Shown: positions 146 through 55,752 of the stretch, piece after piece | Layout of the letters: each line of letters begins with the position of its first letter | Numbering within the stretch: the stretch's first letter is position 1 | NCBI GenBank assembly: GCA_964016885.1 | Contig: OZ024758.1 | Coordinates: forward strand, 22,630,001 to 22,694,000 | Source: Eledone cirrhosa | Lineage: Eukaryota | Reading direction: 5' to 3' | DNA length: 64,000 nt | Notes under the pieces: model-generated | Databases searched by the model: none | Told to the model about the DNA's origin: nothing | What the model saw: the letters and a program-made list of their open reading frames with translations, nothing else | Position numbers and translations under genes: made by a program

Positions 146-188
146 GTCAAAGCTCTTTCGTCACACTTTCTGTGACCTCCTCAGTGAC
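146..188 (-). ncRNA. Minimal type-I hammerhead ribozyme motif (Penelope-like element type)
   Basis: Minus strand reads GTCA-CTGAGGA-G-GTCACA-gaaag-TGTGAC-GAAA-GagC-TT-TGAC: core CUGANGA, 6-bp stem II, GAAA, minimal stem III, UH site, stem I GTCA/TGAC. Abuts (TA)n. Confidence 0.8.
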
Positions 189-612
189 TGCGTTTATATT
201 TCGTGTCTCTCCTTTGTTCTGACCTACACCACCGAGATATGGTGTAGGACTGGACAAAGGAGAGACGGGTATCTTAGCTAGTAGAATGTCATATGCTTCT
301 TGAAAACATCTAGATACACTTCATGTAGGGTTTTTTTTAGTAGCGTATTAAAAGCTTGGCTCCTTTGAACCCCAACCTATTGCCATATCTAGTCCTTATT
401 CTAGATGTAAACGATAGGACATTTGGCACTGTGGTGTGACGACTGTAAGGTCCAGTTCTCAATGCCAAAGCATGATGCTACCACTTTCAGAATCTTCCAT
501 ATATATTATGGATATATATACATACACACACACACACACATATGTATATATGTGTGTATGTGTATATGTGTGTGTGTATATGTGTATGTGTGTGTGTGTG
601 TGTGTGTGTAAA

Positions 613-865
613 GTCTATCTTAAGTCAGAAGGCTCATTTGGCTGGTGCTTATCCCGGTTTCATGACGTGAAGCGACTGAGAGAACAAGACTCCCCCCCCC
701 CCCCCCTGCGCAGGATGCCAGTCCATCGCAGGGTTAAATCCCCAGCTATTGCTGGTACTCATTTTCAACTGAGTATACTGGAGCAACGTGAAATGAAGTG
801 TTTTGCTCAAGAACACAACACGCAACCTAGGAATCGAACCCACGACATTATGATCGTAAGTCCAG
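613..865 (-). mobile_element. tRNA-derived SINE, family B (agact-type tail)
   Basis: Minus strand has a B-box-like GGGTTCGATTCC followed by GTGTTCTTGAGCAAAACACTT...CAGTTG. Similar copies at about 7695-7950 and 48920-49365. Confidence 0.8.
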
Positions 866-2344
866 TGTGTGTGTGTATATATGTATATATATATACAAAG
901 TGTGTGTATATATGTATATATATACAAAGTGTGTGTATATATGTATATATATACAAAGTGTGTGTATATATATGTATATATACACAAAGTGTGTGTATAT
1001 ATGTATATATATACAAAATGTGTATATATATGTATATATATACAAAGTGTGTGTGTATATATGTATATATACACAAAGTGTGTGTATATATATATGTATA
1101 TATATACAAAGTGTGTGTATATATATGTATATATATACAAAGTGTGTATATATATATGTATATATACACAAAGTGTGTATATATATATGTATATATACAC
1201 AAAGTGTGTGTGTATATATGTATATATATACACAAAGTGTGTGTGTATATATGTATATATATACAAAGTGTGTGTGTATATATGTATATATATACAAAGT
1301 GTGTGTATATATATGTATATATATACAAAGTGTGTGTATATATATGTATATATATACAAAGTGTGTGTATATATATGTATATATATACAAAGTGTGTGTA
1401 TATATATGTATATATACACAAAGTGTGTGTATATATATGTATATATACACAGTGTGTGTATATATATGTATATATACACAAAGTGTGTGTATATATGTAT
1501 ATATATACAAAGTGTGTGTATATATATGTATATATACACAAAGTGTGTGTATATATATGTATATATACACAAAGTGTGTGTATATATATGTATATATACA
1601 CAAAGTGTGTGTATATATATGTATATATACACAAAGTGTGTGTATATATATGTATATATACACAAAGTGTGTGTATATATATGTATATATACACAAAGTG
1701 TGTGCATATATATGTATATATATACAAAGTGTGTGTATATATATGTATATATATACAAAGTGTGTGCATATATATGTATATATATACAAAGTGTGTGTAT
1801 ATATATGTATATATATACAAAGTGTGTATATATATATGTATATATACACAAAGTGTGTATATATATATGTATATATACACAAAGTGTGTATATATATATG
1901 TATATATACACAAAGTGTGTGTATATATATGTATATATACACAAAGTGTGTGTATATATATGTATATATATACAAAGTGTGTGTATATATGTATATATAT
2001 ACAAAGTGTGTGTATATATATGTATATATACACAAAGTGTGTATATATATATGTATATATATACAAAGTGTGTGTATATATGTATATATATACAAAGTGT
2101 GTGTATATATATGTATATATATACAAAGTGTGTGTATATATATGTATATATACACAAAGTGTGTGTATATATATGTATATATATACAAAGTGTGTATATA
2201 TATATGTATATATATACAAAGTGTGTATATATATATGTATATATACACAAAGTGTGTATATATATATGTATATATACACAAAGTGTGTATATATATATGT
2301 ATATATACACAAAGTGTGTGTATATATATGTATATATACACAAA
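866..2344. repeat. Compound minisatellite, ~28-32 bp unit CAAAGTGTGTGTATATATATGTATATATATA
   Basis: About 1.5 kb of tandem units punctuated by CAAAG. Produces spurious 500-650 aa ORFs in all frames. Confidence 0.95.
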
Positions 2345-2513
2345 GAAAGTATGGTAAGAAACGAGGTGGGCCATAACGCACGAGAGTACTCGATACTGAG
2401 GGTAGTAGAGTGGGTAATAGGAAAAGAGTCAGGACCCCTACGGCAGAGCTCCGGCCGTTTCGACAGCTAGATCCGAAACGGCCGAAGCTCAGCCGTCGGG
2501 GTACTGACTCTTT
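2345..2513 (-). mobile_element. Fold-back (half-hammerhead) repeat family P with tail, putative Penelope-like remnant
   Basis: Hairpin at 2423-2513 containing GAAACGGC...GCCGTCGGGG plus the shared tail GGTAAG...GGGTAGTAGAGTGGGTAATAGGAA. Flanked by (TA)n. Confidence 0.7.
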
Positions 2514-2684
2514 ATATATATATATATATATATATATATATATATATATATATATATATATATATATATATATATATATATATATGTGTGTGTGTGTGTG
2601 TGTGTGTGTGTGTGCGTGCGTGTGTATATATAATATATATATATATATATATATATATACACACAGACAGACCGACATTATATA

Positions 2685-2877
2685 TATATCGGTGTATTAG
2701 TAGTATCGGTAGAGAGTCGGACGCCATGTTTTGCAGCAAAGAGTTACGGCCCTTTATGATCTGAGTTCAAATCCCGCCGAGGTTAACTTTGCCTTTCATC
2801 CTTACGGGGTCGATAAAATAAAGTACCAGTAATACACTGGGTAGTTGCTGGCCTTGTGCCTAAAGTAGAAACAATTA
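2685..2877 (+). mobile_element. tRNA-derived SINE, family A (AAT-type tail)
   Basis: GAGTTCAAATCCCGCCGAGGTTAACTTTGCCTTTCATCC...GGCCTTGTGCCTAAAGTAGAAACAATTA. More than 20 related copies or fragments occur in the window. Confidence 0.85.
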
Positions 2878-53075: not shown

Positions 53076-54247
53076 ATCTACTGTGAAGGTGCATGGCTTC
53101 GTGGTTAGGGTATTCGGCTTATGATCGTATAGCCACGAGTAAGGTTCCTGGTGGTGTGCTGTGTCCTTAAGCAAGACACTTTATTTCCCATTGCTCCAGT
53201 CGACTCAGCTGGCAAAAATGAGGTTGTACTTGTAATTCGAACGCCCAGCCTTGTCACATCCTGTGTCGTGCTGGATCTCTCAGAGAACTACGTTAACCCT
53301 TTAGCATTTAAACTGGCCATATCCAGCCTGAATTCTTTCACCTCTTTCTGTTCAAACCAGCTGCAACTGGCCACTCATTAACATTAAGGTATTGTTCTCG
53401 AAATCTCAGATTCGATATTATGTGAGATAATTATGTGAGGTAAAGCCTTTACCACAAAAATACAATAGTAAATATAGAGTAATCATCATCATCATCATCA
53501 TCTTACGTCCGCTTTTCCCTCCTTGCAAGGGTGGGATGGGAACTGATTCTGGCTTGATCTCTACAGCTGGATGCCCTTCCTAACACCAACCTCATTTACA
53601 GTGAGTGCTGGGTGCTTTTTTGCCGTGGCACCTCCACGACCACTTTGCAGTGGAATGATATGGACCCCAGTCCCTATCATCTCATTTCTACAGCTGAGTA
53701 AACTGGAGCAATGTGAAATAAAGTGTCTTGCTCAAGGAAACAACACATCACCTGGTCTGAGAATTGAACTCACAACCTTTCGATTGCAAGGCCAATGCTC
53801 TAACCACTAAGCCATGTGCCTCGCATGTAAATATAAATGTTAAAGGGTTGTACTTGCACGTTAATTTCCCAAGCAGGCTGTTCCATTGATATTATCAACT
53901 GGAACACGCGTCGTTGTAACTGACGGAGTGCCACTACAACTCAGCTGGCAAACATGAGCTGTACCTGTAATTTGAAGGATCAGCCATGTCACATTCTATG
54001 GCACACGGAATTACCCAGAGAACGACGTTAAAGGTGTGTTTGTGGAATGCCCAGCCACTTGCAAGTTAACTTTCCGAGAAGGCTGTTCCATTGATCGTAT
54101 TAACAGGAATACTTGTCGTCATAACCGGCAGAGTGCCACTACAACGTCTGTAACAACTCCCTCGTTAACTCCTGTCTAAAAGTAATAAAACACGTCACTA
54201 CTAGACTCAGTGTCTGTTTAAACACAAAGTAATGAGAAGTTTCTTAC

Positions 54248-54464
54248 CTTGTGTCGTGGATGATAAGAATTGTGGTCTAAGATATGATGGATGCGACAAT
54301 CATCTTCAAACTTAGTACCTTCTGTGCAGGAAGTTGAACCACAGCAAGCTCCAACAGGTGACGATGAAGTTAAGTGACTACTGTCTTCTCCATCAGAGTG
54401 ATCATCAAAAATAACACCAGAGTCCTCACCACAACACCTCTCCTGGTCTATATTAGATGGTAAC
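54248..54464 (-). CDS. Internal exon (217 nt, phase 2/0): LPSNIDQERCCGEDSGVIFDDHSDGEDSS...HHILDHNSYHPRHK
   Basis: Acceptor ttttctttttcttag, donor AAG|gtaaga; splices in frame to the exon at 44764. Confidence 0.82.
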
Positions 54465-55404
54465 CTAAGAAAAAGAAAAGTCAATTGCTAACTCAAGAGA
54501 TACGCAAGTGCACTAACAAATTTATATTTCACTCCAATGGGAATATCAAAAGGCATAGGGAGGAGGGAGAGATCACAAAAAAATTGATAAAAATTTAAAT
54601 AGTTTCTATCACCTGAGTAAAAAAAAAAAAAAGTATTAGGAATATTTTGATGACATAGGTGCTGAATGCTGAAATTTAAAAGTGCAGGTTCTATTAAATG
54701 AAAATATATAAAAGCTTGAAAACCATTATAAAGGATTCTACATGTTCAACTCGGTACAGAAAGAATAACCAAAAATATTCACTAAGTAATTGTCGTAAGT
54801 GAGTATTCAGTTTATCCTAAGAACAAATCTATGTATAAATCAATAAACTGTAACCCCACAGGTCATAGCTAACTATCACATAACTCTAAAACGAAACCCC
54901 AAAAACTCTCCAAAAAGATTCAAACATTCACAGCATGGCTGATATTCTATGAAGATAACAACATCCAAATATATAACCTTTGACTAATAACACTGCTACT
55001 TGAAGATGAAGAAAGAATGGTAGGAAATACGACGAGCAATTGGAAATTTCATTGAGACAGATACATGGTAAGCAGAAGGTGAAAGGTTAAGATATACATT
55101 TACCTTGGAAAGCAACTATCTACAAGAAACATCATAGAAGAAGAAACCAACTGTTGAATCAATCTGAGTTGGCGAACATTGGAAAGGGTCAGCTGTCTCC
55201 TAAAAAAATACAATCAAAAAAGTCCAAGCTATCTGAATATACAATATAAATTACTATAATGAACAGAAAGCTAACTGCAGTCATTTACAAAAGTGTATAA
55301 ATATATATAAATATATCAAATCAACCTCCCAAATGCAAGGTGATTGAAAGGTATGTCGTATCTATTTATTTATAGGATTATTTATAAGACTGTTTATATT
55401 GTAT

Positions 55405-55464
55405 TTTGTCTGAAGAAGGCATAACATATTGTTAATATGATATCCCTGAAATATATATAACGAA
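55405..55464 (+). ncRNA. Type-I hammerhead ribozyme motif
   Basis: TTTGT-CTGAAGA-A-GG..CATATT-gtt-AATATG..CC-T-GAAA-TATATA-TA-ACGAA. Confidence 0.68.
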
Positions 55465-55706
55465 ATAAATATGGTTTTATAAATATAGTTTCCATTTATT
55501 TAATATCATAAATATACTCCAAATACTTGTTGAGTGCTTTTATATCAGTTATAAATATTTACTCGTTAACCCAACAATTTAAATATAACTTTCCATATAA
55601 ATATATATATATATATTACTTCCTTAATATCCTTTATCTTTTATTATTTTTCATTCTTCAATGTCTTGGATTTGTTATTGCTTGTGTGGTATGTAATTAA
55701 CCTTTA

Positions 55707-55752
55707 TGCTCTGATGAGTCCCACTTATAGTGCGGATGAAACAATGTTAGCA
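55707..55752 (+). ncRNA. Minimal type-I hammerhead ribozyme motif
   Basis: TGCT-CTGATGA-GTCC-CACT-tat-AGTG-c-GGAT-GAAA-C-aat-G-TT-AGCA. Confidence 0.78.

Follow-up and report, generated by a model that had tools for sequence, protein, structure and literature searches.

What could account for eight hammerhead ribozyme motifs within 64 kb of animal DNA? The question is raised by a stretch of 64,000 nucleotides from Eledone cirrhosa (GenBank assembly GCA_964016885.1, contig OZ024758.1, positions 22,630,001 to 22,694,000 of the forward strand), which we call the window and within which positions are counted. An initial annotation, made from the sequence letters, had listed eight motifs from several families and proposed a very large set of them in the genome, and both parts of that description were borne out. 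In this report, we present evidence that the motifs represent, with high probability, the 3' ends of seven repeat families that carry hammerheads there. Six of these families are linked to genes of Penelope-like elements (PLEs), and the copies in the window were likely produced when target-primed reverse transcription wrote them into (TA)n repeats.

All eight strings were confirmed at their positions. Every one of them contains CUGANGA, a hairpin for helix II, GAAA and UH, and is closed by stem I; the eight are genuine hammerhead motifs. The core is in type I order and helices I and II are present, which marks them as type I hammerheads with predicted cleavage. Each belongs to a repeat family that is dispersed genome-wide (families A to G, with two subfamilies of C) and whose copies share a 3' end 40-200 bp downstream and have ragged 5' ends. 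First-look searches gave ~1,200-3,300 genomic candidates per motif, and 714 for the young C subfamily.

Scans of the window used a strict descriptor, consisting of CUGANGA, a folded helix II, GAAA, a self-complementary helix III, UH and stem I. (Earlier strict descriptors were dropped because motifs with a long or mismatched helix II escaped them.) This descriptor recovered six of the eight motifs. The reversed window and 20 local dinucleotide shuffles contained no match, nor did any of six altered cores find one, so the motif frequency exceeds that of shuffled sequence. A loose first step, which requires only core, hairpin and GAAA, returned exactly the eight motifs and no other match in the window. 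Over 614 kb (the window, 150 kb of flanks and 400 kb elsewhere), the loose step gave 40 matches, as compared with 4-8 in shuffled DNA. Helices I and III also closed in 31 of these 40 (0-1 in shuffled DNA; mean 11.1 and maximum 19 with swapped flanks), and 22 had a perfect helix III palindrome (expected mean 8.7, maximum 18). Standard annotation misses these motifs: an Rfam scan of the window at the gathering threshold detected none of the eight, matching only U6 and a tRNA piece, and by E-value no hammerhead stood among the 150 of 313 matches listed, which were mostly microsatellite-driven microRNA matches.

The proposal that these are PLE hammerheads of the minimal, palindromic-helix-III type, associated with (TA)n, is supported. 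Linked reverse transcriptase (RT)/GIY-YIG open reading frames (ORFs) were found for six of the seven families, three of the Hydra clade and three of Neptune/Nematis type. Family C, the most complete case, appears to belong to the Hydra clade. Its young subfamily is represented by a hammerhead at 8807..8866 on the minus strand (predicted cut 8812/8811; helix III AUAUAUAU), in a sense stub at 8952-8754 with a short 3' end, accompanied by an inverted long tail at 9013-9092. A second subfamily is represented at 55402..55467 on the plus strand (initially given as 55405-55464; predicted cut 55459/55460), in a stub at 55378-55599 with a long 3' end. Elsewhere in the genome, locus L025 contains a hammerhead-bearing pseudo-long terminal repeat (pLTR), a 737-aa ORF (4768-6981), a 1.5-kb untranslated region and a second hammerhead pLTR, in a unit of 3,969 bp, and near-identical open ORFs occur in L023, L026 and L028. 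The encoded protein has RWR, SDKT, CNCRDRSKC (CxCX5C), CDLC (CxxC) and CKH (CxH) motifs, and CCHH is absent.

Families G and E likewise have Hydra-clade marks. The G hammerhead (55707..55752, plus strand; predicted cut 55748/55749; helix III ACAAUGU) lies in a stub at ~55617-55800 with a short 3' end. A Hydra-type ORF related to that of C lies 2.2 kb upstream of the motif in L112 and L114, and the G pLTR reads into an RWR motif in L257; the Hydra-clade marks of G are RWR, CNCRRASGC, CNLC and CPH. The E hammerhead (20853..20918, plus strand; predicted cut 20913/20914; helix III ACC-UUU-GGU) occupies a stub at 20853-21016 preceded by an inverted 5' arm at ~20795-20852. In L213, L223 and L225, the E pLTR continues without a break into an ORF that has RWK and DKT-type motifs; the Hydra-clade marks of this ORF (RWK, SDKT) are seen in its N-terminal half only.

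Families A and F are assigned to the Neptune/Nematis type by their linker and CCHH-type endonuclease. The minimal F hammerhead (28913..28944, plus strand; predicted cut 28942/28943; helix III ACGU) has a stem I of just 2 bp, a family-wide feature, and its insert (~28565-29032) is flanked by (TA)n tracts. Upstream of F motifs lie an RT, a CX4CxxC linker (CPRPRCNTC) and a CCHH GIY-YIG domain in L108, and the endonuclease end in L109. The A hammerhead (146..188, minus strand; predicted cut 150/149; helix III A-GAGC-U) lies in an insert at ~12-265 with a 5' fold-back. Among 20 A copies found by their endonuclease end (two additional short matches were TA-repeat and were excluded), 12 carry the motif 250-320 bp downstream, and RT, linker (CX4CxxC; CTDRKCIVC) and GIY-YIG pieces were found in L369, L373 and L379. 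The minimal B hammerhead (5788..5823, plus strand; predicted cut 5819/5820) lies in an insert at 5694-5917 that ends in (CA)n(TA)n and is read as the 3' stub of a Neptune-type PLE. A degenerate GIY-YIG end upstream of B, in one locus (L052/L117), is 45% identical over 42 aa to the F endonuclease (E 2e-5).

The insertions also have PLE hallmarks, namely partial tandems (pLTRs), inverted 5' copies and a one-sided tail. A dinucleotide repeat lies directly 3' of the insertion end in 44/46 copies of C, 41/47 of G, 26/38 of D and 69/109 of E. Most of the inserts had been described as 100-300 bp, AT-rich and next to (TA)n. Six of the eight do have (TA)n in or beside the insert end, 50-141 nt from the cut site, but the C-rich F insert is ~470 bp. 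The insert at 20853 ends in (CG)n/(GT)n, and the 146 motif is followed, 6 nt away, by (TA)n that belongs to the element itself as an expanded tract.

How the inserts were copied may be read from their ends. Measured from the cut, 3' ends are bimodal: C ends at ~+50-58 or +141-145, G at +51 or +145, D at +56 or +194-196, and E at +43 or +106-108. Just past both 3' ends, families C, D, E and G have paired RCTC...GAGY hairpins (for example, at 55517-55536 and 20957-20977), whose stems start at +58/+149 in C, +56/+148 in G, +61/+205 in D and +44 in E, with a second GCTCC at ~+113 in E that was read by eye. These hairpins are candidate signals for the start of reverse transcription. Our literature search found no tail hairpin signal like this pair, most subscription papers lying outside the search. 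In family B, the 3' end is at the cut site and joined to (TA)n in 6 of 14 distinct loci, though the junction itself reads T|A; A ends near the cut scatter from -1 to +1 and beyond. Such A and B cases are a few loci among many thousands.

The 5' ends of inserts are ragged, from -14 to beyond -1,300. Among 120 tail-anchored copies (30 each of D, E, F and G, the first listed by tail words), 114 extend more than 10 nt past the cut site and one starts there. A pile-up of 5' ends at the cut site was considered and rejected, because 1/120 is about what an even spread predicts. In family E, 25 of 30 copies stop 30-90 nt upstream, nine of them at -67 to -69, the 5' edge of an extended helix I, often as fold-backs; the first upstream word tried for E matched one locus only. 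From these ends, we infer that the copied RNA was uncut, or re-joined, at the ribozyme.

A model of copying would be as follows. Source elements would be tandem copies, from which read-through RNA would span pLTR, ORF and pLTR. The GIY-YIG endonuclease would nick a (TA)n target, and RT would start 40-200 bases past the ribozyme, at one of two pLTR sites, each lying, in the four Hydra-type families, up to ~10 nt before an RCTC...GAGY hairpin. RT would then copy the ribozyme from uncut read-through or re-joined RNA, and drop off or fold back. Cleavage in the source tandem is predicted to take place between ribozymes paired as a dimer by their palindromic helix III, or with the aid of the element's protein. 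PMC8557442 describes a tail, an inverted pLTR and a (TA)n bias that match the features seen here, and PMC11167929 reports internal initiation on unprocessed RNA, which agrees with this model, and cleavage that requires protein. Because the ribozyme would sit near the start of reverse transcription, almost every insertion longer than ~150 bp should carry it, and motif density would then equal insertion density.

Most probably, the stubs seen in the window are passive fossils. They are solitary, with no same-strand twin within the window, and two are damaged: at 5788, the ACGT of family B has become ATGT, which weakens helix III and loses the palindrome, and at 20853, an alternative hairpin is predicted in which the inverted 5' arm sequesters CUGAUGA. 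The window stubs are therefore probably inert.

If the ribozymes matter to the source elements, covariation among copies might be expected, and this proved to be so for helix II. We aligned 48 distinct C-type variants from all loci, picked by core and flanks so that helix II was unconstrained. Two-sided changes occur in seven of its eight pairs, and 96% of cells pair. None of 500 shuffles reaches the covariation score, and slid registers drop pairing to 36-58%. RNAalifold recovers helices I and II. Helix III palindromes differ between families (AUAUAUAU, AUGCGCAU, AUGAUCAU, ACAAUUGU, ACGU), as selection on dimer pairing predicts. The helix III strands are short and palindromic, and no monomer hairpin is predicted for any of them. 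Together, these data suggest that the helix fold has been under selection in the source elements. While neighbouring pairs of helix II covary, its fourth position (columns 21 and 54 of alignment A1) holds a C.C mismatch that most C-type variants retain, as does D, including the 20401 motif; this mismatch is possibly a tertiary or protein contact.

The alternative that survives best is that the motifs are small noncoding retrozymes, excised by the ribozyme, circularised and copied as units. Family D is the case in point. Its hammerhead (20401..20458, plus strand; predicted cut 20454/20455; helix III AUGAUCAU; insert 20295-20530) ends a non-coding unit of 2,077 bp, seen whole as one tandem pair that is 99.6% identical. 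The longest stop-free stretch of the unit is 103 aa, without a PLE match, and a 28-nt word from the D tail has 1,625 exact matches. Non-LTR (long terminal repeat) retrozymes have been reported as PLE derivatives (10.64898/2026.07.22.740005 and PMC7229834), and reading across the cut site would also be expected from a re-ligated circle. However, six of the seven families run into PLE ORFs, the ragged 5' ends (-14 to beyond -1,300) define no unit length, and the D unit exceeds the 51-972 bp range given in 10.64898/2026.07.22.740005. We therefore regard the retrozyme explanation as improbable. Family D shares Hydra-type tail motifs, and likely represents a non-autonomous Hydra-type element. No autonomous partner for it was found among 67 loci screened. 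PLE ORF pieces near D copies are separate insertions. The middle of the D unit (L121, minus strand) also contains a duplicated GC-rich block of ~155 bp, the two copies 73% alike, which is perhaps a promoter.

Several points weigh against the interpretation of the motifs as PLE 3' ends. It is drawn from sequence, and hammerhead cleavage is a prediction. A re-ligated circle is indistinguishable here from uncut RNA, and some 5' "ends" are alignment stops at low-complexity sequence or subfamily breaks. Pfam has no family that matches the Hydra-type ORFs, and its matches to F are weak (RVT_1 and GIY-YIG, E 0.02, below cut-offs). The PLE link of B is thin, consisting of one degenerate copy of the endonuclease end, and no linker was seen for this family. 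Family D lacks its own ORF, and its presumed mobiliser is identified solely through shared motifs. Clades were set by motifs read against Craig et al. (PMC8557442) rather than by a tree, and Neptune and Nematis are not separated. Covariation counts are inflated by relatedness among sequences, and covariation within family E is weak: in an alignment of 58 of 63 copies (excluding four with indels and one near-duplicate), it involves three pairs, mainly one, and 3 of 500 shuffles reach the score.

A second alternative is co-option, in which the motifs would serve the host by cutting host transcripts, for instance within introns. The window contains the final four coding exons of a gene for an SLC9A-like Na+/H+ exchanger (40028..54463, minus strand; exons 54463-54248, 44767-44441, 41947-41864 and 40996-40028), whose product is 92% identical to an Octopus sinensis protein. 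Because the next upstream exon is 34 kb outside the window, 54464-64000 falls within an intron, which extends for 43 kb. The suggestion that some motifs reside in introns thus holds for two of them, at 55405 and 55707. Both are on the plus strand, antisense to the gene, and exchanger pre-mRNA therefore does not carry them as ribozymes. The same intron contains an inverted pair of C-type hammerheads just outside the window, at 65110(-) and 65248(+) on the window's scale (L196), one of which is sense to the host gene. High motif density, two motifs in one intron and a sense motif nearby are what co-option has in its favor. But both intronic motifs within the window are antisense, the sense motif is half of an inverted pair and would pair with its twin, the copies at 5788 and 20853 carry damaging changes, and the copies are young, interchangeable repeats. 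Co-option is therefore very unlikely.

Motif density beyond the window was estimated from a 400-kb sample of the 3.0-Gb genome, taken as forty 10-kb stretches placed at round positions across 19 contigs. This sample contains 15 strict matches (one per 27 kb) and 20 loose matches (one per 20 kb), of which ~4 are expected by chance; the 150-kb flanks contain 8 strict and 12 loose. Extrapolation gives 112,000 (63,000-185,000) strict to 150,000 (91,000-231,000) loose matches genome-wide. The set of motifs is thus very large and diverse, as the initial annotation proposed, and (TA)n-associated, but its figure of one ribozyme per 8 kb describes the window only. The window is 2-3 times denser than the sample (P ~0.02-0.04, before allowing for the window having been picked). 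As a floor, genome-wide pattern counts are 22,658 A-type whole cores, 11,504 B/F-type whole cores and 40,227 C-type 3' halves, as compared with 37, 0 and 0 for reversed patterns. With these counts, the shuffled, reversed and altered-core controls and the loose-step results, the idea of chance matches in AT-rich, microsatellite-rich DNA is refuted and retains a negligible probability. In its favor are the shortness of the core and the 40 occurrences of CTGANGA by itself in the window, where 25 would be expected; two short tandem arrays account for 13 of them.

Published counts are ~9,000 minimal motifs in Xenopus (PMC4209133), ~5,000 in mussel, and 120,000 in axolotl, or one per 235 kb; the density here is roughly 10 times that of axolotl, although descriptors differ between studies. 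For cephalopods, 235 hammerheads have been reported from the giant squid genome (PMC6962438), and our literature search found no octopus-wide hammerhead count; most subscription papers were outside that search, and bioRxiv supplements could hold invertebrate counts. We give about even odds to a broader proposal: that octopods have the densest animal hammerhead load counted (100,000-200,000, and more with U3-A8 variants), because the Hydra-clade RCTC...GAGY hairpin pair past the ribozyme sets two RT starts on uncut or re-joined RNA. This arrangement would explain the one-sided PLE tail, and would be kept by a non-coding passenger family.

The U3-A8 variants come from another abundant (TA)n family, of which the window has 3' halves at 2475, 5028(-), 5655, 8254, 9151(-), 9193 and 31070(-), without the 5' core. 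In whole copies (for example, L327, L009 and L023), the hammerhead fold is built on a variant core, UUGANAA; helix II is long, helix III has 5 bp and is stable, and GUC is present. With this core, the family is missed by a CUGANGA scan. There are 15 halves in the 400-kb sample and 8 distinct whole copies among ~72 matches. The U3-A8 variant has been described for Schistosoma (PMC4209133). Fold-back stubs at 20043-20179 (a hairpin) and 5319(-) represent one more family. They have GAAA, a stem that pairs like helix III, UU, and an AAAC that closes on GUUU, but their 5' core is non-standard (UUGAAAU or UCGAAAU); they are possibly divergent hammerheads.

Other features of the window include a U6 small nuclear RNA-like copy at 17065-17165 on the minus strand (71 bits), probably a pseudogene, with a divergent 3' part. 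At ~29360-30786 on the plus strand, the 5'-truncated RT ORF of a long interspersed nuclear element (LINE) follows directly after the (TA)n that closes the F stub. Minisatellite arrays occupy 869-2345 (31-bp unit), 33192-34849 (83-bp) and 60313-61500 (32-bp).

The class of element is known, and hence no new system is revealed; what our findings add is scale and a test bed. Earlier papers describe PLE hammerheads, the dimer model, dispersed truncated copies, the Hydra clade with its (TA)n bias, and a hammerhead-bearing Octopus member of that clade. The families described here are new, of a known PLE kind, and their scale and paired hairpins are absent from the literature found in a search that most subscription papers lay outside. 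With a young family whose ORFs are intact, dated insertions in the tens of thousands and numerous helices that vary independently of one another, several PLE questions should become testable: whether hammerheads cut in vivo, what sets the two RT starts, and whether sense copies are purged from introns. If the hairpins do mark RT starts, this is directly testable with the intact 737-aa protein.

The closest known systems are the endonuclease-positive (EN+) PLEs of the Hydra clade, including Hydra-1_Obim of Octopus bimaculoides (PMC8557442). These share RWK-type, DKT, CxCX5C, CxxC and CxH motifs without CCHH, a hammerhead close to the 3' end whose CUGANGA is often followed, and whose GAAA is often preceded, by an extra base, a palindromic helix III, (TA)n targets, a tail at one end and inverted 5' copies. 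The hammerhead sequences of C, D, E and G differ from the one listed for Hydra-1_Obim. The pLTR of C is clear and its unit measures 3,969 bp, whereas the Hydra families described are mostly <3 kb; also unlike that clade are the long helix II with its kept C.C mismatch and the tens of thousands of copies.

Families B and F are textbook minimal PLE hammerheads (PMC4209133), with an unpaired base after A9, a G-C pair at the base of helix II, the ACGU palindrome (the B window copy reads ATGT) and a short stem I. As in that study (Cervera and de la Pena 2014), most motifs are dispersed singly from truncated PLEs, and many families coexist in one genome. The numbers differ, ~2,000-9,000 per genome there and an estimated 110,000-150,000 here, a rough ratio given different descriptors. 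The same study reports no cleavage by monomers and low activity for dimers; dimer cleavage of minimal PLE hammerheads (Lunse et al. 2017) is described in reviews (PMC6765202, PMC7761336).

Poseidon_Ac of Anolis (PMC11167929) likewise has two internal RT start sites that define the tail, and AT-rich targets; unprocessed RNA is its main template, with no reads at the cut site. Both of its starts lie in one AC-rich stem-loop, whereas the starts here, as read from sequence, lie 60-140 nt apart, each before its own RCTC...GAGY stem. Finally, D resembles the metazoan non-LTR retrozymes (PMC7229834; 10.64898/2026.07.22.740005) in being non-coding and tandem, with one type I hammerhead per unit and PLE-like ends. 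It differs from them in its 2,077-bp unit and its mostly truncated stubs, and the other six families are coding elements.

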